Below, one piece after another: positions 11,721-53,680 of a stretch of 64,000 nucleotides of DNA. Numbering within the stretch: the stretch's first letter is position 1; each line of letters begins with the position of its first letter. The DNA is from Heteronotia binoei (Eukaryota). Under the pieces are notes generated by a model. That model made no database searches. It saw only the letters and a program-made list of their open reading frames with translations, and had not been told where the DNA came from. The translations under genes and the position numbers were made by a program. Location: the NCBI RefSeq assembly GCF_032191835.1, contig NC_083232.1, forward strand, positions 75,144,001-75,208,000, in the 5' to 3' direction.

Positions 11721-11889
11721 AGAACTTCCTGCCCCTCTAGGAGGCTTTCCCCCTAGAGTTGCTGGTTTAACTCCAGAAGGGAGGAGGGAATGAGGGGAAG
11801 GCTAAAGAACTTCCTGCCCCTCTAGGAGGCTTTCCCCCTAGAGCTGATGGTTTAACTCCGGAAGGGAGGGGGGAGTGAAGGGAAGGCTA
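11721..11889. repeat. 85-bp tandem duplication at the L2 ORF end / 3' UTR
   Basis: AGAACTTCCTGCCCCTCTAGGAGGCTTTCCCCCTAGAG occurs at 11721 and 11806. Confidence 0.9.
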
Positions 11890-12014
11890 GGCCACACAGC
11901 CTGCCTAGTAGTTTCATGTTCCCCTCCCACCAAGCACCAACATTAACCAAGATGGCGTTTCTCCACAAAGTGCCAAAAGCCTGTCGGAATAACTCAGTTT
12001 TGCAGGCCCTGTGG

Positions 12015-12850
12015 AATTGAGAGAGGTCCTGCAGGGCCCTTATGGCCTCTGGGAGTGCATTCCATATTTCAGGTGTTGCAACTGAGAAGGCCCTGAATCG
12101 AGTAGAACACAGCCTGGCCTCCCTTGGTCCGAGGATGGACAGTAGATGTTGTGTCCCTGAACTCAGTGCTCTCTGGGAAACATGTGGAGAAAGGCGGTTC
12201 CGAAGATAGATAGGCCCCCGATCATATAGGGTTTTAAAGGTCAATACCAACATCTTGAAACGGACTCGGAACGCAATAGGTAGCCAGTGCAGTTCTTTCA
12301 GCACCGGCTGAATGTGCTCCCATTGAGGGAGCCTCATTAACAGCTGTGCTGCTGCATTCTGCACTAGCTGCAGTTTCTGAGTCAAGGGTAACCCTATGTA
12401 GAGAGCATTCCAGTGATCTATTCTCGAGGTGAAATTGAGAGAGGTCCTGCAGGGCCCTTATGGCCTCTGGGAGTGCATTCCATATTTCAGGTGCTGCCAC
12501 TGAGAAGGCCCTGGATCGTGTAGAACACAGCCTGGCCTCCCTTGGTCCGAGGATGGACAGTAGATGTTGTGTCCCTGAACGCAGTGCTCTCTGGGGAACA
12601 TGTGGAGAAAGGCGGTTCCGAAGATAGATAGGCCCCCGATCATATAGGGTTTTAAAGGTCAATACCAACATCTTGAAACGGACTCGGAACACAATAGGTA
12701 GCCAGTGCAGTTCTTTCAGCACCGGCTGAATGTGCTCCCATTGAGGGTGCCTCATTAACAGCTGTGCTGCTGCATTCTGCACTAGCTGCAGTTTCTGAGT
12801 CAAGGGTAACACCATGTAGAGAGCATTACAGTGATCTATTCTCGAGGTGA
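12015..12850. repeat. 418-bp direct tandem duplication inside the L2
   Basis: Copies 12015-12432 and 12433-12850 both start AATTGAGAGAGGTCC and end TTCTCGAGGTGA; about 11 substitutions by manual comparison. Confidence 0.95.
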
Positions 12851-14348
12851 CCGTGGCATTGATCACCATTGCTAGGTCATCGTGTTCCAGGAAAGGGGCC
12901 AACTGCTGAGTCCGTCGGAGATGGAAAAAGGCGAATTTGGCAGTGGCTGCAACTTGGGCCTCCATTGTCAAAGAGGACTCAAGAAGCACTCCCAAACTCT
13001 TGACCTTAGGGGCCGGTATCAATGGCACCCCATCAAGAGTTGGTAAAGGGATCTTCCTTCCTGGGCCACCCTGACCTAGATAGAGAACCTCCGTCTTGTC
13101 GGATTCAGCTTCAACCAACTCTGCCTGAGCCAAGTGCTTCTGTATTCACTTGTGTACTCACCTCACTCTCCCATCAGATTTTTAAATTCCTTCCAGATTT
13201 TAAATTCTTTTCCCCAAGTGTTCTGCAGTCACTCTACTGTATCTCTGTAGTTTCCGAGGGTGGTTTTTTAGAGGAGTATTTCCCTCTCCTCCTTTTAGTT
13301 GGTTTCAAAGCCTTTAAAAGCATACACATTTCCTCAGACTTTTCCTCCCCCCCCTCCCCTCACAGCCCAGTTGGTGTCTCCTTATTGGTCAGTTTTGTAC
13401 TAGGCATGTCTTTTTGAAATGGGAGTTAAGGAAAGTAATTGCCTTTTGGACTTGTTTGCAGAAATAGCCCACTAGCTTGGTTGATTAAGACACAGTGCTA
13501 TTAACATGAAGGTTGTTGGTTTGATTCCCCATTTTGTTTTTTGTCTTTTTTGGGGAAAAATGTTTTCTTTTAAATTGACTGTGAAGACAAACATTTCAAA
13601 TGCCAGGATAATGCTGTGGAACCTGCTCTAGAACAGCAGCAGCCTGTTTAAAAAAAGTCTGGTCCATCGTAACATCTGGTCTTCCCCTTTTTGTAATCTC
13701 ATTTCCAAATAACAATTGTGTGTGTGGGGGGGATGCAGACGTCCCCACTCCCTCTCTGGCCAAGTGGTTGGCATCTCCTCTCACTAAGCTTTTAAATCAG
13801 TTTAGTGCCATTTTTTCCCCCTTCAATAATCCTGGATTATCATTAAACTTCTTGACTATTGATGGGGGTGGTGGTGGGAGAAGAACACTAATGGCAACCC
13901 CACAGTAAATTCAGCTGGAAGAATCTCCTATTTCAAAAGATACTAACCAATCAGGAGAGACCAATCCCATAACGCTACCTGGGTTTTCTCACTGGTATGT
14001 AGAATATATACTCTGCAATTCCCAATAGAAATTGGAGAGGGGAAAAAAAGATGCAGAGTGCAGGCACAGCATTTGAAGTAAACCCCAACCAACTTGACTT
14101 CAATGAAAATCAGAAGTAACTGTATGCAGAAAGGCCCAAAGTCCAGTTTATGGAGTGTAATCATGCAGAAATCCTGCATTTATTTATTTGAAATGTTTTT
14201 ACTTCACCTGTCTCCTTCAAAGAAGGAAAGACCCAAGGTGACTTGATGCTAAATTAAAACCCCCACAAAGTTATCTTTTAAACCATTTATCATCAAAACA
14301 TTGACCTCATACTAATATACCTGCCACATCCCAAACTCTTAAGCCTTA

Positions 14349-33930: not shown

Positions 33931-34670
33931 CCACAAGAAAAAAATGAGGGGAATACAAAGTCTTGTCATCCCCCCCCTACTCCTTGTTGCATGGCTTTCA
34001 ACCCCAATTTAGAAATACAAAGGAAAATCACAGCATTTGAGCTAGAGGCCACAACAAAAACATAGAATTTTTGCTGGGAATTCTGTGCCGGTTCTTCGTG
34101 CCTATACAAACCATTGTGGTTTGAGTACAGCCGCCTGTCTATACTGAGAAACACAGACAGACAAGGAGTCAGGATAAATTGTCTTAATAAACTCTTCTTT
34201 TATTTGAAGAAACAACTATAATAAGCTTGTGAGTTGTGAGTGCTGTAGCAGACAGGTCAATAATCTACTTCCTAATTCACTCAGAATTATATTAGATCAC
34301 TCAAAAGAAAGCAGCTTATTATAGTTAATCTTCAACATTCATCTTTAATCTCTCTCTTTCATTAAAATCAGATGCTGGCCAAGCTCCTGGGTATATAGTG
34401 ATACGCTGTCTCCATCTTGCATAAGAAAACAGCATATTTTTAGATTTACGTTGGATAAATCTAAATCCCCATACTCTCCAGTGAGGAGTACAAGGGATAC
34501 AGAGAGCTCAGTCAGGTCGAATAGAGTCACTTACCAGAATATGATGGGCCAGTTTCCTACTTGTTTTATACTGCATTCAGTGATTTTTATGTAAAACAGA
34601 ATCAGGCTTATCTGTGATGCAGAATGACCTGTACTGGGCGCTTCCTGATGTATTTTTATCCATATGAAAG

Positions 34671-34986
34671 AGTAGTAGCTAGGGGGCCCCTATCATCATC
34701 AAAGTGACAGTTGCCCCGCCCACACATGCATGCCCCACCCACACAAAAACAAGTGTCGTATGTTTCCTTATGGGGGAGTGATGCAACAGTCCCCGAGGGA
34801 GCGGCTAGGGATCCCCCCCCCCAAGGAATGCCAGATGTTTCCTAAGGGGGAAAGGAGGGTTAGCCACTGGTGCAACAGGCTTCATATTGTTTGAGAAAAA
34901 GCACGTTTTGCAACACAGACGTTATTTAGAGAATTGTGGAGATGCAACAGTTCTAAGCGGCCATAGTTTGGAGAGAAGACATACCC
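34671..34986 (+). repeat. Left terminal inverted repeat of the Polinton-like element
   Basis: About 95% identical (roughly 15-16 differences by manual alignment) to the reverse complement of 41510-41827. Confidence 0.95.
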
Positions 34987-36646
34987 ATTTTGTACAGATG
35001 AAACAGCATGCCCTCCCACGACACTCTTCAAACAGGTGCGTAACATCCTTGTAAGAACTGCATTTTGTACACCATGCCCTGGAGGGACATGCTGTTTCGT
35101 CTTGGGCCGCCAGCTCACCATGCCTCTTAAAACAAAAGTCGCTACTACAATATAAGCAGCAGTTGGGACATTTCTTAGGCGTCCCTAGGATCGTTTTACA
35201 TTCTGCGGTGGAACACATTCTACAAAATTGAGTACACTTATGGTAATGGTTTTATAGGGTGTAACAATACCTGCAATAATTCCTAGACCCAAAAAATATC
35301 TTAATGTGAAGAATGCCATAAAAATGAACACTATGTAAAAGCATAAAATGCGTCTCAGGATATTTTGGGGGCTGTGTTTTAAATATACTCCATCCCTTAT
35401 CAGAACACAACACAACATGAATGTTCACTTTTAAATGTTCCTCAACTGTTGATATGTCACAGAGACCCACCTTTTTCTGATCAGACCATCCTAATTCACT
35501 GTGTAATTTTCTAGCTGCCTCTAACAGGATTGCGTCAGAAGGATCCCCCGCTCTTTTCATTACATCCATAAGCCCCACCGCAAAGCATAGGTTGTTGTAG
35601 TAATCAAAAATGCCATTTTTTTCAATTATTGAACTGTAAGGGATAGACAAGCACCACCCCTTGGGGGCTTTGAAACAGTCACAATTAAGCGCAGTGTGTC
35701 GGTGCTGAGTTTTTCTCTATTGCTTTGCAGCATATTTACCACAAACTCCAGAAACTCATCCGCATTGAGATGGTCTTTCTTTTTCTTAAATGAAAATAAT
35801 GGATTTTGTAGACCTTCCCCCTGTAGGCGCATTTGAACAAAATCTCCCTCATCTATGCCACCATTAATCTCATCCAGAACATCCTGGATCCCCCTCGTTA
35901 GCACTTCCAAGGCATGTGCAAAGGAGCGCACGTGTTCTAAATTTACAAAGCGAAATTCCTCGCTGGTTACCAAAGTCCTAAATCTTTCATAGGGCATCTG
36001 CCACCCCCTCACACATTCCACATAGACTTCAGGAGGTTGTGGAGAGGCATTTGGACCCCCCAGCACAGCCTTTACCACCTCCACACCATCAGGGCTGTCG
36101 GAGACTTTAGGAGGTGATGGAGAGGTTGCACATCTCTCTGCTGTGCCCTCCCCAATCCCATTGGTGCTAGCAGAACGTGCTTCCCCATCCTCCTCTCCCC
36201 CCACCTCATCAGCTTGAACAGACATCAGGTCTGGGGAGTCCCTTACACCTTCAGAGACATTGTTGGGCAGAGCCCCCCCATACTGAATAGCGCTATCAAT
36301 ACACGCTGAGTACTTTGCATTATTTTTAATCAATTCGCTCTCATAGTTGTCAAACAGCTTGGAGATCTTGTTGCAAACATCACGAGCCTCCATGGCTTTC
36401 TTAATAAGATTATCTTTCTCTTTCAATTGTTGAGTGAGTTTGAAAAGAGATTCAGTTAATTCCATCCGTTTTTTAGGTTGATCGCTATCGCTTATTACGC
36501 CCCCCCCCCTTCGTTGGTTCTTGCACTGTCAGTTTTTCTCTTTTTAGGCTTAGGCCCCTTCTGGCTGTTGGTAGACACAGAACGTTTCTTTTGAGGTGTA
36601 CCATCACCCTGCAACGGCATTGCAGCTTGTGATGTTCCAGCTACAG
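34922..36646 (-). pseudogene. Disrupted N-terminal part of Polinton protein-primed DNA polymerase B polyprotein (basic/coiled-coil leader, terminal-protein-like region, vOTU-like domain, Cys-rich region); exonuclease and polymerase core missing
   Basis: ORFs 36495-36689, 35626-36465, 35252-35650 and 34922-35218 join via a poly-G frameshift (36500-36509), a frameshift at ~35650 after PRGG, and one in-frame TAA (35252-35254). Motifs MLQSN, PPRGG, NNLCFAVGL, HFYGI, CRYC, HKCTQFCRMC and CSSDFCFKRH match my recollection of vertebrate Maverick/adintovirus PolB N-termini. Confidence 0.82.
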
Positions 36647-36826
36647 CTTCAAGAAAATAAACATACATAGATGTAGACCAAAAAAACACGCTGTGATCAT
36701 GTAAAACTGCGCAATTGTATTGGACAAAAGTACATTAAACTTGTACAGAAAGTTTTAAAAGATGATTATGATGTTTAAAACAAAATTATTTTTGTTAAAT
36801 ATGACTCCACAAAAAACCCTACAAAA

Positions 36827-36828
36827 AT

Positions 36829-36867
<39 letters not shown>

Positions 36868-37115
36868 TTCCGTAACTTATACCCCGCCCTTCCCACAGAG
36901 TGGCTTAGGGCGGCTCACAGCAAACGATAAAACAATAAAACAGGAGCAAAGTTATTACAATTAAAAAATAAGCATTTAAAGACCTAAAAACCTTAAAATT
37001 TCAACATTAAAACTATACTGTATAAATCACAAAAATCTAGTAAGTTACATTTATCCAGTCAGGCGTAGGCTAACCGGAAGAGGGTTGTCTTACAGGCCCT
37101 GCGGAACTGAGTAAG
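36827..37115 (-). mobile_element. L2 3' fragment nested in the Polinton-like element, with (TAAA)n tail
   Basis: Minus strand reads LTQFRRACKTTLFRLAYA*, then a short UTR ending GGGCGGGGTATAAG and (TAAA)n at ~36827-36870. Confidence 0.85.
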
Positions 37116-37154
37116 AATTGTAACCAATTGATAATACATACAGGATATACATAA

Positions 37155-37370
37155 GGGGAGGGATGGTAGCTCAGTGGTAGAGCATCTGCTTGGTAAGCAG
37201 AAGGTCCCAAGTTGAATCCCTAGCATCTCCAACTAAAAAGGGTCCAGACAGGTAGGTGTGAAAAACCTCAGCTTCAGACCCTGGAGAGCCACTGCCAGTC
37301 TGAGTAGACAATACTGACTTTGATGGACCAAGGGTCTGATTCAGTATAAGGCAGCTTCATATGTTCATAT
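37155..37370 (+). mobile_element. tRNA-derived SINE with CR1-like tail, nested in the Polinton-like element
   Basis: GGTAGCTCAGTGGTAGAGCATCTGC...GTCCCAAGTTGAATCCC (box A/B), ending CAGCTTCATATGTTCATAT. Confidence 0.85.
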
Positions 37371-37769
37371 ATGTATGTTGGTTTATGGTAACTAATGCTG
37401 GGATAATTTTGCCAAGCAGTGGAAAAAGTTGGAAGCCTCAACTCTAGAAAATACCTGAAACGGCTGAAATAGACATCACGACAGTGGTTCTAAATGTTGA
37501 ACCTATGCAGGAAGTGTTGGAGAGTTGGGCTCCTTTCTATGAATGGCCCTTTTTCACAGAGTATTAAGGTGTATCAAAATGTTATTCAAAACCCCCCTAA
37601 AATCTGTTGATAAAACCTTCTACAAGTCTCGTGCCAGCATTACAATGTTGTAAAAACTAAGCATCTTTAAGTGTCAAAATCTCTTATACACAAATATTTA
37701 CTGCAACATTCAAATTTTATTAATCCCCTAAAAAAACCTATACAGATCTCATTAGTTTCATATAAAATA

Positions 37770-37862
37770 AGAATATAAGAGAAGCCATGTTGGATATACA
37801 CATATATATACACACTGTGGCTAATAGCCACTGATGGACCTCTGCTCCATATTTTTATGCAA
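37770..37862 (-). mobile_element. Short CR1 3'-end fragment
   Basis: AGAGAAGCCATGTTGGAT...CACACTGTGGCTAATAGCC...CTCTGCTCCATATTTTTAT matches the 3' end of the CR1 at 40423-40565. Confidence 0.8.
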
Positions 37863-37926
37863 AAATGCAAAAGCTGCCACATTTGTGCAGTATTGATTTT
37901 GAATCCCATATGCTGTTAAAAGTGAC

Positions 37927-37943
37927 TCTCTCTCTCTCTCTGA

Positions 37944-37981
<38 letters not shown>

Positions 37982-37982
37982 G
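37927..37982 (+). repeat. (TC)n(AC)n microsatellite
   Basis: Directly visible. Confidence 0.95.
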
Positions 37983-37990
37983 AGTGAGAT

Positions 37991-38457
37991 CTGTTTGGCA
38001 AACAAGGCATTTCCAAAAAACCAACCATTAAAATAACATAGAGCTGATTAATTAATATTCTTACCAGGCTCCTTAAACACAGTGGCTGCCTGGGGGTGCA
38101 TTTGTGCTGCTAGATCTTCCTCATCTGAAATAACCTCTGTCAAAAAACCAGATCAAATTAATTCAGAAAACTTTACATTTACATCTTTACAGCTTGTTTG
38201 TGTCATAAAAAAAGAACTTGTAAAATTTTATTTACCTATGTCATTAATAGTGTATTGATACAATTCAATCATGCTGCTAATAGCTACTGATTCTAACTCC
38301 TGCGATTCCATACACAAATCATCATTGAGGTAATCTGAAACCAGAATTAAGGTACTTGTTAAATGTCTATTTGCTGGTAGTTCTACATCCACACAACCCC
38401 CCCTCCTCATACCAAAATTTCTTATCTTGATAATCATTGAGCTGTGTTGCCATGATG
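37991..38457 (-). pseudogene. Putative spliced gene segment inside the Polinton-like element: exons 38457-38413 (45 nt), 38334-38236 (99 nt), 38136-38065 (72 nt); introns of 78, 99 and 74 nt
   Basis: Canonical sites: acceptors CTTTCAG, GGTTTCAG, TTTTGACAG and CCAAACAG; donors G|GTATGA, AG|GTAAAT and TG|GTAAGA. Exon lengths are multiples of 3 and stay open in phase 1 (...DYLNDDLCMESQELESVAISSMIELYQYTINDI-EVISDEEDLAAQMHPQAATVFKEP...). Product unidentified. Confidence 0.6.
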
Positions 38458-38489
38458 CTGAAAGTTGTATGTTTACAGCTGATCTTAAA

Positions 38490-40290
38490 AGTTTTTGTTG
38501 CATTAAAGATGATCCTTCACATATCCTTAATATAGTTATTTGGGGATGGGAGGGGGAGTCAGAAAATATATGGCAACTTGACTCTGAAAATATATCGTGT
38601 GAGAACCTAATTTCCTGAGTTCTCTCTCTGTTTATCTTGACTGGTCTAAGCACTTGATCTTTTAGGACAGTTTGAGGGGTCAAATACTTTTGTCTCACAA
38701 TTAGCAATATATAAGATTGATCAGATTAGAAGGCTGAGAGAGAGATATTTCTACAGTTCTCACCATAAAATCACTGCCTTTTTAGGACAGTTGACCTTTT
38801 AGGATAGTTTCCCAGACACGGTTCTGTGAGAAATCTTGTTTTGACAGCCAGAGCTAGATTCCCCAGCCTGGAGACTGGCAAGCTCCCTGTGTGGTCGCAG
38901 AGAACAGAGGGAGTTTTCATGATCGTCTGAGAACAGGTTGATGAGGCAGTCTTTATCCCCAACAATGAAGACAGGGGTTGGGTTTTAAGCTATATAGCTG
39001 TGACCAGACACAGTGATTATTTTTCATTTCAAGGGGGGAGAAGCCAGCATTAATACAAAATTAAAAATTGAAGCTGTAATACCATTTATGATATGCAGAT
39101 AGTCACAATAATTTGCAATGTTATAAGCAAATATTACTAAGGTGGTGTTGTGAATGCCTAACTGCTTAATAAGTACTATACATTGTGTAAAAAATAAAAT
39201 TTCTTTTTTGAGTGATTCATATTGTGGCAAGCACTCTCAGACCACAGAACTAATTTTTTTTTTAAAATGTCCATTGCTTTGAAGTGTGAGGGAAACTAAT
39301 TACTTTAAAACATATAACTAACAGACACAGGCAATACAAACTGGGGCTGCCAACAGCGCTTATAAAAACTTTCCCTCCTCATTTTCTCCTCATAACAACC
39401 CTGAAAGGTTAGGCTGAAAGAGAGAGTGATTAGGCCCAGGTTACGCCCTGAGTCCGTTTGTGAAGAGGGTGGGATATAAAGCCAGAGTAAGTTAATAAAT
39501 AAAAAACAAAATTACCACCTAGCGGGGTTTCTTAGCAGAGTGGGGGTTTCAAATTTGGGTCTCCCAGATTCCAGTCTAACACTTTACCGCTATGACACGC
39601 TGACTCTAGAAATTCTGCCAGCGGATTTCTCTGAGCTGGATATATTTGGAGATCCTTAATAAGAATTATACGGCTTTCCTGTTTAGGGCAATGTACAGAA
39701 ATCTTTTTGTAATTTGCCAAGATTCTTTTGGTTGCATTGTTGAGCCTGATCCTAGTTTTGGCTTCTGTTTATATCTGTTTGGGTGGGGGACTCAGAAAAT
39801 ATGTGGCAACTTGACTCTGAAAATATATCGCGTGAGAACCTAATTTCCTCAGTTCTCTCTCTGTTTATCTTGACCGGTCTAAGCACTTGACCTTTTAGGA
39901 CAGTTTGAGGGGTCAAATACTTTTGTCTCACAATTAGCAATATATAAGTTCGATCAGATTAGAAGGCTGAGATATATATTTCTACAGTTCTCACCATAAA
40001 AATAACTGGCCTTGAGCAGTTGACCTTTTAGGACAGTTTGTGGGGTTAAATACTTTTGTCTCACAATTAGCAATATATAAGATCGATCGACTTAGAAGGT
40101 GGGAAACGATACCTTGGAATTCACTTTCCCCAGACACGGTTCTGTGAGAACTCATTTGCAAGGTTTTGTGTTTTGTTTTGACAACCAGAGCTAAATTCTC
40201 CAGCCTAGAGACTGGTAACCTCCCTGTGCTTGCAGAGGACGAGAGACAGTTTTCATGATCGTCTGAGAACAGATTGATGAAGCTGCTAGA
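38490..40290. repeat. Dispersed direct duplication within the element (~38490-38950 vs ~39720-40290), with an extra partial internal repeat at ~40015-40100
   Basis: Shared blocks such as GGCAACTTGACTCTGAAAATATATCG.GTGAGAACCTAATTTCC, CAAATACTTTTGTCTCACAATTAGCAATATATAAG (three copies) and TTTTCATGATCGTCTGAGAACAG. Confidence 0.9.
39350..39600 (-). mobile_element. Old MIR/Squam3-like SINE nested in the Polinton-like element
   Basis: CCTCATAACAACCCTG..AGGTTAGGCTGA...GGCCCAGGTTAC and CCCAGATTCCAGTCTAACACTTTA are reverse MIR-like core and head. Confidence 0.6.
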
Positions 40291-40422
40291 AAGATAGGTT
40301 TTAATGTTAATAAGAAACTGTAGGTGTTTGCAATTAATAATTAACAGGGCAGTGTTATTAGAATGGGTTGCAGAACTAGCCATGAATGTCTTTGCAACAG
40401 TTTCCCCCGTAAAACACACTGA

Positions 40423-41407
40423 GAACATAAGAGCATAAGAGAAGCCATGTTGGATCAGGCCTATGGCCCATCCAATCCAACACTCTGTGTCACACAGTGC
40501 CCAATATAGGTGTGTGTATGTACACACACCCACACTGTGGCTAATAGCCTCTGCTCCATATTTTTATCCAATCCCCTCCTAAAGCAGGCTATGCTTGTAG
40601 CTGCCACCACCTCCTGCAGCGGTGAATTCCACATGTTAATCACCCTTTGGGTGAAGAAGTACTTCCTTTTATTTGTTTTAACCTGACTGATCAGCAATTT
40701 CATTGAATGCCCACGAGTTCTTGTATTGTGAGAAAGGGAGAAAAGTACCTCTTTCTCTGTTTTCTCCACCCCATGCATAATCTTGTAAACTTCAATCGTG
40801 TCACCTCGCAGTCGACGTTTCTCCGAGCTAAAGAGCCCCAAGTGTTTTAACCTTTCTTCATAGGGAAAGTGTTCCAAACCTTTAATCATTCTAGTTGCCC
40901 TTTTCTACACTTTTTTCCAATGCTATAATACCCCTTTTTGAGGTGCGGTGACCAGAACTGTACACAGTATTCCAAATGAGTCCGCACCATCGATTTGTAC
41001 AGGGGGGGCATTATGATACCGGCTGCTTTGTTTTCAATCCCCTTCCTAATAATTCCCAGCGTGGCGATGGCCTTTTTTATCACAATTGCACACTGTCTTG
41101 ACATTTTTTTAGTGAGTTTTCTACCCCCCCCCCCAAGATCTCGCTCTCTCTTGGTCAGTCTCTACCGGTTCACACCCCCATCAACTTGTATTTGTAGCAG
41201 GGATTCTTGGCCCCGATGTGCATTATTTTGCACTTGGCCACGTTGAACCTTATCTGCCACGTTGTCGCCCCACTCACCCAGCCTTTGGAGTGCCTCGCAA
41301 TCCTCTCTGGTTTTCACCACCCTGAACAATTTAGTGTCATCTGCAAACTTGGCCACTTTGCTGCTTACTCCCGACTCAGGTTCATTAATGAACAAGTTAA
41401 AGAGCAC
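40423..41407 (-). mobile_element. 5'-truncated CR1 LINE (RT C-terminus plus 3' UTR) nested in the Polinton-like element
   Basis: Frames read LFNLFIN...KFADDTKLF, LYKSMVRTHLEYCVQFWSP and RRLRGD.IEVYKI...TRGHSMKL; tail (TCTTATG)n-like at 40423-40440; frameshifted. Confidence 0.92.
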
Positions 41408-41509
41408 GAGTTGTATCGACACGCAATCTGATGCAACGTGATGTTAAAGGGACGTGTTACACCTATAAGATTAGCTGTGTTCAGTTTTAAAGCCATCATT
41501 TTATCTGTT

Positions 41510-41827
41510 GGGTATGTCTCCTCTCCAAACTATGGCTGCTTAGAACTGTTGCATCTCCACAATTCTCTAAATAACGTCTGTGTTGCAAAACATGCTTTTC
41601 CTCAAACAATATGAAGCCTGCTGCACCAGTAGCTGACCCTCCTTCCCCCCTTAGGAAACATCTGGCATTCCTTGGGGGGGGGTGGATCCCTAGCCGCCCC
41701 CTCGGGGACTGTTGCATCACTCCCTCATAAGGAAACATATGACGCTCGTTTTTGTGTGGGTGGGGCATGCATGTGTGGGCAGGGCAACTGTCACTTTGAT
41801 GATGATAGGGGCCCCCTAGCTACTACT
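41510..41827 (-). repeat. Right terminal inverted repeat of the Polinton-like element
   Basis: Ends ...GCCCCCTAGCTACTACT immediately followed by TSD TGAAAG. Confidence 0.95.
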
Positions 41828-42539
41828 TGAAAGGTAATCAGATTAAATCTGGTGCATGGGATATGCGTGCAAAGAGGATGTACTATGATAATGCCACACT
41901 GGCCTCCATAAAATTGCCTCTGTTTAGGGTTGCCAGCACTGCCTTGGCAACTGCTGAGAATTTTTTGAAGACAATGCTTGAAGAGGGTGGAATTTGGGGA
42001 GGATGTGACATCATTTCCAGATGGATTTCTCTTAATCTTTCTGGTAAAGGCCAAAAAGAAATGGGAAATGGGAAAATTCCTAGAATATCACTAGGGAGGC
42101 TATTTTCCAGACATTTCTCTCTTGCTTCAATTTCTTATGGTTGGTAGGGAGGGCTGGGGCCATGGGTAGGGGTTTATGCATTGCAGGTAGGCAGATGGCC
42201 AACCTCTGGCTGAGTTCCTGCCAATTTGATTTAACTTTAGGTAAACTTACTCAGACACGTTCCACTGAGTTCGGTGGACTTTATACTATGGTTTATTTAT
42301 TTATTGCACTTGTATCCCGCTCTCCCCAAATGGGCTCAGGGCGGCTAACTACAGTCACAATTCGATGACAGATTCACATTATAACAATAAAACATTATTA
42401 AAACATTAAAATATTAAAAATGTTTAAATACAGTTCAGATGGCGTTCTGTCCACGGAAAAGGCTCTTGCCCTTGTAGTGGTCAAACAGGCATCCTTTAGA
42501 CCAGGGATGTTTAACAGATTTATCGAGCTTATTGCACAG

Positions 42540-51329: not shown

Positions 51330-53680
51330 GCAAGCCATACCATACCAAACCTTTAATGGCATAATAGATTCAGATAAAAATACACAGAATATAAAAATTT
51401 AATCATTGGAGATAAAATCAAGATAAAACCGAGCTTACAGATGCATTCAAACATGGTCAGAATTAAATTTAAGGATGTCAGCCAGAAATTTTGCCACAGC
51501 CTCACTAACCACCCCCTCAGTATCACTCAATAAATAATAACAGGGTGGCAGAATAGACAAATCTGGAGAAAAAGAAAGCTTGCCAAATAAATCTTTACGG
51601 AGGTTATGGTATAAAGAACAATCAAGCAATATATGCTGGATTGAGTCAGGGGTATTTGCTCCACAAGAGCAAAGTCTGTCGGCTAGAGGGACTCGCTGAT
51701 ATCTCCCTTGTAAAACTTTGGAGGGAAACGCGTTTAGTCTAGCCAACATAAATGCCCTGCGATGACTTGGAGTGGTTAGGTCTGATAGATAATTGGGCAT
51801 TTTGCCACAAAAAGCATAAAGACCTAAGGAAGCTGGAGAGCAAATATAAGGGTCAGTTGGCCGTAATTTCGTATCCTCCGATTCCCATAGTCTCAGTTTA
51901 ATACATCTGAAGATATATGACTCATCAGCGGTAGAAAAATCATCTACCTCTAACCCCAATTGATTGAGTTTAGACAGAAGCACTGCTGTCCAGGATGAAA
52001 TATATGGGTCTCTTTTCATACAATCAAGAAGGCTGTTGGGATCTGTTCTAAAATGAATTTTGAGCCAGAATTTAAACACTGCAATCCAGGCTTTTGTCTC
52101 CACCAAAGACTGACCCACTTCAGAGCAGAGAGCAAAGTAGGACACACATTTTGGCAAACCAAGAATTTGTCTAAAGAATGAGGCTTGAATGCCCTCCACT
52201 TTCCTGGTAAAAGCTGAGATCCAAATAGGGATACCATAGAGGATTTGGGCAAGCGTTTTGGCTTTGAACACTTTAATAGCTGCTGGAACTAATTGGTTGC
52301 CCCTTGCAAAGAAAAACTGTTTAATTTGAGCAGCTGAACATTTAGCCAAGTTGACGGTGTTGTTACGATGTGAAACCCAGCTTAACTTGTGGTTAAAAGT
52401 GATCCCCAAGTATTTAAAATTTTTTGTTTGCTCGATTGTTGAATTGCCAATAAACCATCTCTGTGGGCGCCAGCAGTTTGAAAAGACAACTACTTTAGAT
52501 TTGATGTAATTGATAGTAAGTGAATTACAATTACAGTAGTCATAAAAGGCATTCAAATACCTTTGCAGGCCCACTCTTGTACAAGAGAGGATGGTAGTGT
52601 CATCGGCATAAAGTAATAAGGGGACCGCTCGGCCTGCAAGTTTAGGCGGATGACCGTTGACAGGGTTCAAAAATTGTGCCAGGTCAGTTAAAAATAGATT
52701 AAAAAGATGCGGGGCCAGCACGCAACCTTGTTTAACCCCCTTTAACACTGGGATTTTACTAGTCAAGTCACCGCTAGAAGAAAATTTCACTTGGCAAAAG
52801 GTATTAGAATGAAGTTTCCTCAAGAGAAACAGCAGACGAGGGTCCATTCCCAGGTGACCTAGCTTGAGCCATAGTTGGGCTCTATCTATTGAATCAAAAG
52901 CACCCTTCAAATCGATGAAGGCAGCGTATAATTTTTTTGACCCGGTATGCATATATTTTTCAGCAAGGAAGGCCAGAGTGCAGCAGTGATCCATAGCAGA
53001 TTTGCCTTTGGAGAAACCAATCTGTTCAGGACCTATGATGTAGCCTAGGTGCATCCAGTCAGTTAATCGGAGTTCCAAATGTTTTGCATACAGTTTGCCC
53101 ACTATAGATAATAAACTAATGGGGCGGAAATTTTCTGGTAACTCCAACCCCCCCTTTTTGTATATTGGAATAATTATAGAGTCAAGCCAAGAGTCAGGGA
53201 TGGAGCCATGCAGATCGATAAAAGAGAACAATTTTGCAAGGGGCAAGAGCCACCAATCGGCAAACTTTGTGAATACCTCAGCGGGAAGGCCATCAGGGCC
53301 AGGTGCTTTACCCGCTTTTAAATCCTTCAGTAACTCACTGATTTCCTCTAGAGTTACTGGAGGCCAGACCGGCATATCAGTAACTGAGAGGTTTGCTAAG
53401 ATAGGAGGGGATACGCATGGAGCAGCAAAAATGTTAGAGAAGTAATCAACCCATGTTTGCTCAGAGATATTTGGGTCAGTAACAGAATTGTTTTTTAGAT
53501 TACCTGAAATGATTCTCCAGAAAGCCTTATTATCGTTAGATTTTATCGAGTGGTAAAGTTGGTCCCATTTATTCTGAAAGAAAACTTTCTTTTTGGATGT
53601 AGTAAGCTCCAGGTAGGCTGTCTTGTAAGCAATGTAGGCCTTAATTTTTGATTGGTCTTTGGATTAACGTGATATATGGG
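51330..53680 (-). mobile_element. 5'-truncated RTE-X-like non-LTR retrotransposon
   Basis: Carries the RT ORF below; short 3' UTR ending ATTAAAGG plus (TGGTA)n tail at ~51333-51355. Confidence 0.85.
51447..53664 (-). CDS. Reverse transcriptase with C-terminal C-x-C...H...C motif of an RTE-X-like LINE (endonuclease domain absent)
   Basis: 642-aa ORF with KAPGPDG, NFRPISLL, FIDLKGAFD, GVKQGCVLAP, YADD, FKYLG and RLCSCG...HILLDC. By manual translation the frame stays open upstream of the listed Met to a TAA at ~53665-53667 (~739 codons). Confidence 0.9.

Follow-up and report, generated by a model that had tools for sequence, protein, structure and literature searches.

Micro-exons for an acidic leader as the probable spliced 5' end of the polymerase gene in Maverick/Polinton elements of the gecko Heteronotia binoei

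A Maverick/Polinton remnant in the genome of Heteronotia binoei (NCBI RefSeq assembly GCF_032191835.1, contig NC_083232.1) carries, upstream of its truncated gene for the family B, protein-primed DNA polymerase (pPolB), three small exons that encode an acidic leader peptide. The remnant lies in a stretch of 64,000 nucleotides (positions 75,144,001 to 75,208,000 of the forward strand), hereafter the window, whose own numbering is used for coordinates below. We consider it highly probable that the Maverick pPolB gene normally has these micro-exons at its 5' end, and that they do not form a separate gene. An earlier reading of the window from its letters alone (the sequence-only reading) had proposed that the expression of pPolB may pass through an acidic leader added by splicing and missed by the calling of open reading frames (ORFs), and this proposal is supported by RNA joints, by selection confined to the joined frame and by RefSeq isoforms of another gecko, Paroedura picta.

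A search of the genome at protein level yielded 150 matches, among them six close copies (L021-L026, on contigs C15, C1, C9, C14, C21 and C6) with uninterrupted pPolB frames of 1409-1425 codons. All six of these long-ORF copies carry the leader, 1.6-2.9 kb upstream of pPolB, and in four of them the leader regions are very similar. From these copies the leader is defined as an ATG exon with 28 coding nt, an exon of 99 or 93 nt and one of 72 nt, all in phase 1, followed by a tandem acceptor where pPolB begins; the ratio of nonsynonymous to synonymous substitution rates (dN/dS) in the leader is below 1. The presence of six such copies in one squamate genome suggests, from sequence, recent activity; the available text of a survey of vertebrate Mavericks counts only five intact elements across all tetrapods (PMC8097293).

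The RNA evidence comes from the assembled contigs of one study, in whose run X1 a fraction of 0.28 of the sampled words was present. Aligned to L026 at a likeness of 85%, the X1 contigs skip 93, 85 and 1618 nt of this copy, with ends CT..AC on the plus strand (GT..AG on the gene strand), and the joints coincide exactly with the three intron boundaries mapped separately from DNA. Because the three joints share a depth of 42.9 and a record of 759 nt equals 559 + 99 + 72 + 29, a single contig probably carries all three junctions. Exon 2 measures 99 nt in the contig, as in the window, and exon 1 extends about 540 nt upstream of the ATG. The joint into pPolB uses the first AG of a tandem (NAGNAG) acceptor. 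In a second X1 contig (depth 29.1), exon 3 is linked, with 72 letters on the shorter side, to a variant of the pPolB start that one of 40 copies has (L088).

The same boundaries recur across the genome. A search with the leader region gave 41 matches, the best 40 of 114 genome candidates being scored; 59 loci were examined, all leader boundaries being mapped in 53 and the pPolB start in 40. Among the 53 copies, donors 1, 2 and 3 are kept in 51, 52 and 52 respectively, and acceptors 2 and 3 in 53 and 50; the ATG is kept in 50 and has an A at position -3 in 51. The coding part of exon 1 is 28 nt long in 53/53 copies. Lengths are divisible by three in 49/53 copies for exon 2 and 48/53 for exon 3, versus 15/53 for intron 1 and 20/53 for intron 2, and the exon length variants are in frame (93/99 nt for exon 2; 72/78/81 nt for exon 3). 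Intron 3 measures about 750-1050 nt in most sister remnants and 1618-2948 nt in the long-ORF copies; in L022-L025 a unit of ~580 bp is triplicated within it, the intron reaching ~2.9 kb with the exons untouched. At the pPolB start, the first AG of the tandem acceptor is present in 38 of 40 copies and the second in 39. The joined leader peptide counts 62-64 residues plus the junction codons, with 13 aspartate or glutamate residues and one lysine or arginine, and in six copies the spliced junction is in frame with an uninterrupted pPolB exon of 1394-1397 codons. Methionines upstream of the acceptor occur in 6/6 long-ORF copies, and those near the acceptor are intronic or stand in a weak context.

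The coordinates, lengths, GT and AG ends and phase-1 openness given by the sequence-only reading (exons of 45, 99 and 72 nt, introns of 78 and 99 nt, the acceptors and a 48-nt segment) are correct. Two of its exons, those of 99 and 72 nt, are real, as are the four splice sites of these exons and the 38064 donor; all are kept across copies and used in RNA. Its first exon has to be redrawn. The acceptor AG of the 45-nt segment (38413..38457) is found in 15 of 43 mapped copies, the segment maps in none of the six long-ORF copies, and exon 1 of the X1 contig runs unbroken across this acceptor. The donor at 38412 is absent from 6/6 long-ORF copies, and the real donor, kept in 51/53 copies, lies 13 nt upstream (38426/38425). 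The strong Kozak context claimed for the ATG at 38453 holds; the one-base frameshift claimed with it came from assuming the wrong donor (38412), and through 38426/38425 the ATG is in frame. As regards the acceptor pair proposed at pPolB, the AG at 36648-47 is the second AG of the tandem site, while that at 36642-41 occurs in 7/40 copies and in no long-ORF copy (0/6).

Codon comparisons were made on twelve copies, two of which have a one-base loss in exon 3. In 30 between-subfamily pairs the leader exons have dN/dS values of 0.06-0.29, similar to those of the pPolB body (0.09-0.21). In six gap-free copies, the ratio of the proportions of nonsynonymous and synonymous differences (pN/pS) of the leader is 0.33 when read in frame, against 1.07 and 1.41 for the other sense frames and 0.54-2.02 in antisense, and stop-containing codon pairs number 5 in frame versus 56-144 in the other frames. 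By these comparisons, the leader peptide is under purifying selection, and in the pPolB-joined frame only. Between L021 and L022/L026 synonymous divergence is 0.44-0.66 in the leader and 0.13-0.14 in the pPolB body (3-5x), the short introns being 87% identical; this high leader divergence is not fully explained, and leader exchange between subfamilies is one possibility.

A second family in the genome, whose pPolB is 49% identical over 880 residues, has a leader of unrelated sequence and the same design, with a predicted ATG exon of 31 nt followed by putative phase-1 exons of 60, 102/99 and 96/105 nt and by introns mostly of 90-160 nt (range 89-296). The exons were mapped in 9, 9, 10 and 8 of 15 loci, AG or GT being lost in at most one locus per site; in-frame stop pairs number 0 versus 104 and 181, and pN/pS is 0.58 versus 0.85 and 0.98. 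In this family a promoter-like stretch bearing CCAAT-like boxes lies ahead of a strong donor that is conserved (L031 6400-6560, L060 3330-3490, L035 6660-6740), which suggests that one or more non-coding exons precede the ATG exon. A tblastn hit that seemed to resemble exon 3 turned out to be a non-coding repeated stretch upstream of the promoter-like region and was dropped. Among intermediate copies, reading of the sequence found a 93-nt exon 3 with a 286-nt intron in L037, further phase-1 exons in L036 and a phase-1 acceptor at the pPolB start in L038; a weak leader hit in the latter was discarded, there being no exon at that place. A third family, more distant (L029, C1:79993700-80003699), has an uninterrupted pPolB frame of 1520 codons (52% identical); a candidate phase-1 acceptor lies close to where this frame begins, and its upstream region is broken by an insertion.

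The nearest named proteins are RefSeq models of P. picta, 74% identical in the core; its models of 1463-1492 aa carry a leader on the full polymerase, and this leader resembles the one described here in layout. RefSeq isoforms rest on transcript evidence. The P. picta isoforms X1 and X2 differ by one residue at the matching junction, which fits the tandem-acceptor prediction. In a comparison of 17 isoform pairs, made on protein records, those of Hemicordylus and Brachyhypopomus differ, close to the N-terminus, by blocks of 2, 19 and 24 residues that keep the frame. The squamate and fish models (P. picta XP_077198779, XP_077198782 and XP_077205236, Hemicordylus LOC128331625, Brachyhypopomus LOC143485425) have N-terminal extensions with isoforms differing by 1, 2, 19 or 24 residues. 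They bear the name "uncharacterized protein" or that of a host gene, and the extensions are not identified as belonging to Mavericks. In an ORF-called homolog (P0003) the initial methionine stands two residues ahead of the acceptor-matching position. In one P. picta model (P0002/P0007), exons of EPHB1 run in frame into the last leader exon and on through all of pPolB, so that host transcripts may be captured at the leader acceptors.

Several observations weigh against reading the leader as the start of pPolB. Counts over the 53 copies are not independent, since these copies go back to few masters. Among close subfamilies, exon nucleotide identity is often not above intron identity (0.83 vs 0.87, L021/L022), which at face value is the outcome that the sequence-only reading had named as contradicting it; the codon-level test attributes this to many synonymous changes. 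Turtle and frog RefSeq/GenBank pPolB models have no acidic leader and start directly with the basic stretch. The joints come from assembled contigs of one RNA run without a DNA-run control, and runs X2 and X3 have no cover on the gene, which proves nothing in itself and leaves the sequence in one run only. Where the joint falls on the exact acceptor, its shorter side counts 29 letters, fewer than the threshold of 31, at a likeness of 85. The introns are also covered by unspliced contigs in X1 (DNA or pre-mRNA), and no X1 contig links the leader to the catalytic domain.

Common descent and exon identity no higher than that of introns would both suit a pattern of fortuitous splice-like motifs that one element passed on to its many copies. 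We give this explanation practically no weight: three RNA joints fall exactly on the predicted sites, purifying selection is specific to one frame, and exons 2 and 3 vary in length in frame.

An RNA library can contain DNA, and joined contigs might then derive from an intron-less retrocopy in DNA, the exon-like pattern being a relic of a captured host gene fragment; nematode Mavericks, in the available text on them, do carry intron-containing cargo genes (10.1101/2022.07.12.499685). The exon-3 motif has 71 hits in the genome, of which 50 have a pPolB-start partner, in every case at least 759 nt away; no intron-less copy is among these 50, and the 21 unpaired hits were not inspected. A retrocopy would itself prove earlier splicing, and a captured fragment does not account for selection in the pPolB-joined frame, nor for the same layout in a family with an unrelated leader sequence. 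We regard this explanation as very improbable. The separate captured or compacted cargo gene that the sequence-only reading had offered as its alternative is not supported, given the splicing of exon 3 to pPolB in RNA and the joined-frame selection; nor is a captured host cargo gene with its own stop, exon 3 being spliced onto the pPolB exon, although no search against host proteins was made with the leader by itself.

Splicing could also be real and serve mainly a short product (leader, basic patch and helix) or stem from truncated copies, full-length pPolB being made from an internal methionine. The spliced contigs stop soon after entering the pPolB exon and none reaches the catalytic part, RefSeq includes isoforms of Hemicordylus that are short (144-237 aa) and share this N-terminus, and an in-frame methionine stands 10 codons after the acceptor. 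However, the junction opens in frame into the long uninterrupted exon of six copies, the P. picta models bear the leader on the full polymerase, and contig depth cannot rank the parts of a gene; we assign this alternative a low probability.

Taking the leader as the start of pPolB, three further proposals of the sequence-only reading concern its exons and their surroundings. The near acceptor at 37991, suggested as a spliced route, has its AG in 51 of 54 mapped copies (five of them long-ORF), yet no RNA joint falls on it; it may still act as a minor site. The microsatellite said to have hit the exon after it is also present in long-ORF copies, and therefore it did not strike an exon at a later time. 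The segment IEVISDEED had been likened to a SUMO-interacting motif (SIM). A SIM-like pattern occurs in 23 of 79 N-terminal regions versus 29.0 expected from local shuffles (100 candidate homologs, 83 with the core found, some redundant); the motif persists in gecko elements where exons 2 and 3 join, and is not enriched in homologs.

The 48-nt candidate exon (37502-37455) keeps its AG in 42, its GT in 42 and a length divisible by three in 43 of 44 mapped copies. It is absent from all six long-ORF copies, hence from the RNA reference. Its in-frame ratio is 1.39, and the same decayed copies give 1.57 for the true exon 3, so that the codon test is uninformative. In L083, L084 and L088 it keeps its length and donor and is preceded by a different pyrimidine-rich acceptor, which we take to resemble a retroelement tail.

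By its structure, the window copy is a dead internal-deletion derivative of a Maverick/Polinton (Table 1). Its terminal inverted repeats (TIRs) of ~317 bp start with AGTAGT and are identical at 303/317 aligned positions. The pPolB remnant matches residues ~2-559 of the 1425-codon sister frame at 75-85% identity, with two frameshifts; it stops near residue 559/1425, so the catalytic domain is missing. A Pfam search of the remnant returned nothing above cut-off, and no integrase ORF was seen among the ORFs of the copy. It has neither the complete gene set nor the intact pPolB of an autonomous Maverick, and two of its splice sites are lost: donor 1, at 38426/38425, and the first AG of the tandem pPolB acceptor. 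The left arm of the element holds internal direct repeats (211 bp at 92%; 85 bp x3; 38536-38746 and 39769-40099). The interspersed repeat inserted at 40413..41406 is presumably a CR1. Elsewhere in the window stand an open frame of 738 codons (51447-53663, minus strand), which we take to be like the reverse transcriptase of a long interspersed nuclear element (LINE), and two shorter frames with a 300-bp tandem duplication (11852-13145, minus strand), presumably LINE-like.

Table 1. Features of the Maverick/Polinton remnant and its leader exons in the window (SINE, short interspersed nuclear element; TSD, target site duplication)
Feature	Position (strand)	Description
Leader exon 1, coding part	38426..38453 (-)	ATG at 38453; 28 nt; ends in phase 1; 5' untranslated part extends upstream
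Intron 1	38335..38425 (-)	91 nt here; 80-108 nt in 53 copies
Leader exon 2	38236..38334 (-)	Acidic; 99 nt, or 93 nt in a sister subfamily; phase 1 at both ends
Intron 2	38137..38235 (-)	99 nt here; 81-106 nt in 53 copies
Leader exon 3	38065..38136 (-)	72 nt; phase 1 to phase 1
Intron 3	36650..38064 (-)	1415 nt here, with SINE-like and other inserts
Tandem (NAGNAG) acceptor, pPolB exon start	36647..36651 (-)	First AG 36651-50; second AG 36648-47
Candidate cassette exon	37455..37502 (-)	48 nt; phase 1; window's subfamily and some older copies only
Whole element	34671-41827	7.2 kb; non-autonomous Maverick/Polinton derivative
TIR, 5' end as read on the pPolB strand	41509..41827	AGTAGT end motif; from TIR alignment
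Second TIR	34671..34987	From TIR alignment
TSD, 6 bp	34665..34670 (+); 41828-41833	Left copy; right copy
pPolB remnant	35006..36649 (-)	Basic patch, long helix, terminal-protein-like domain, OTU-like domain, Cys/His region
Interspersed-repeat insertion inside the element	40413..41406	Approximate limits; matches unrelated loci

One long-ORF copy was examined whole: it measures ~16.5 kb and has TIRs of ~490 bp starting with AGAAGA. Identical 6-mers, as a TSD, flank the long-ORF copy on C6. Pfam assigns the polymerase of L026 to the protein-primed family B (PF03175, E 3.9e-45) and finds an rve integrase (E 1.5e-14) and a chromodomain in a sister long-ORF element. ORFs for a packaging ATPase and a protease fit in size and position, with sub-threshold Pfam matches only (Pox_A32 and IVa2; Peptidase_C5), as do capsid candidates of the sister element, these having no Pfam match. 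In the long-ORF copy a predicted pPolB-ATPase-PZ module stands opposite a predicted integrase-capsid-protease module. The TIR of the window subfamily (AGTAGT) is barely like that of the long-ORF copies (AGAAGA; L043/L044 termini) while the pPolB DNA is 85-90% identical, and for this reason termini must have been replaced or have diverged fast.

The elements share TIRs, AGTAGT/AG-type ends and a 6-bp TSD with vertebrate Mavericks (PMC8097293) and with the Alpha adintovirus-type PolB bearing OTU and PF03175 (PMC8502044), and the module layout and ~16.5-kb size of these known systems match the predicted layout and the size of one long-ORF copy. They differ in the gene structure of pPolB. In its available text, the vertebrate survey describes intact Mavericks as having intronless ORFs, with no introns observed (PMC8097293), a description and not a diagnostic criterion, whereas pPolB here has three spliceosomal introns, all GT-AG and removed in RNA, and a predicted four in the second family. 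The part available on nematode Mavericks likewise calls the core genes intronless, with introns only in cargo (10.1101/2022.07.12.499685). Spliceosomal introns in genes of DNA transposons are shared with Ginger1 (PMC2836005) and with nematode Maverick cargo; those of the nematode elements lie in captured cargo, those described here in a core replication gene. The stem "splic" is absent from PMC8502044 and PMC11161782, and a term-level search of the available parts of PMC10748475, PMC12220804, PMC9683012, PMC6431247, PMC9004415 and PMC9341512 gave no relevant passage. At the level of titles and abstract openings we found no report of a spliced Maverick pPolB; supplements, Repbase, Kapitonov and Jurka 2006 and Pritham 2007 were outside this scope, and Repbase and Pritham 2007 might mention a spliced POLB.

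Another likeness is with the E2B region of adenoviruses, which encodes the terminal protein precursor (pTP) and the polymerase, and whose mRNAs are rare, according to the part available of PMC7851563. In human adenovirus 37 (HAdV-37), pTP is annotated with an upstream exon of 9 nt, which splicing connects to a main ORF at a distance of about 3.3 kb (PMC2397415, Table 1). In both systems an upstream coding exon is spliced onto a main ORF; the adenovirus exon holds three codons, whereas here three or four exons encode about 65-95 residues. The available text of PMC11161782 proposes that pTP is homologous to the N-terminal terminal-protein domain of polinton pPolB. Adenovirus pTP and polymerase are separate proteins, unlike Maverick pPolB.

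A confident structure model covering residues 1-566 encoded by the pPolB exon has a low-confidence basic start, a helix at 56-110 and a beta/alpha domain at 182-299, followed in the prediction by a further domain with invariant Cys337/His424. Foldseek gave OTU domains (probability 0.97-0.99) and Y-family polymerases at E~0.01-0.02, the top rows being unrelated Csy subunits, and no match at E<=0.001. The modelled OTU and Y-family hints are in line with the terminal-protein and OTU assignment in the available part of PMC11161782.

In the mechanism that we propose, a host Pol II transcript would start inside the left arm of the parent element. The spliceosome then removes two introns of ~85-95 nt and one of 0.75-3 kb, as seen in the RNA contigs, and an ATG in strong context, with an acidic leader of about 65 codons, is joined in frame to the ~1400-codon pPolB exon and would be translated with it. 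The leader would precede a basic patch like a nuclear localization signal, the long helix, the terminal-protein-like domain and the OTU-like domain, and it would stay on the terminal protein if OTU cleaves after it, as PMC11161782 proposes. The symmetric phase-1 layout would permit gain, loss or skipping of exons without breaking the frame. The most likely role of the exons is just to provide the start codon together with a flexible tail that evolves fast, a disorder suggested by composition. A broader view, which we hold to be unlikely, is that the multi-exon phase-1 leader is old and widespread in vertebrate Maverick pPolB, that it shares a common origin with the spliced start of adenovirus pTP, and that it forms on the terminal protein an alternatively spliced regulatory module tying replication to host splicing (for example in germline or embryo), with a possible part in SUMO/PML-body defence.

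The main survey of vertebrate Mavericks says that there are no introns, and the structural work on pPolB did not consider splicing. The importance of the finding is tempered by the fact that automated RefSeq models already hold such exons, unnamed, and any special function of the leader is still hypothetical. If the proposed gene structure is true, the published N-termini of these lizard elements, which start at intronic or internal methionines, would be wrong, and the term "intact" would have to cover, besides the splice sites, 2-3 kb of left arm that looks empty. The element would depend on nuclear Pol II and on the host spliceosome, as adenovirus E2B does, and it becomes possible to test whether adenovirus-style splicing already existed in polinton ancestors.

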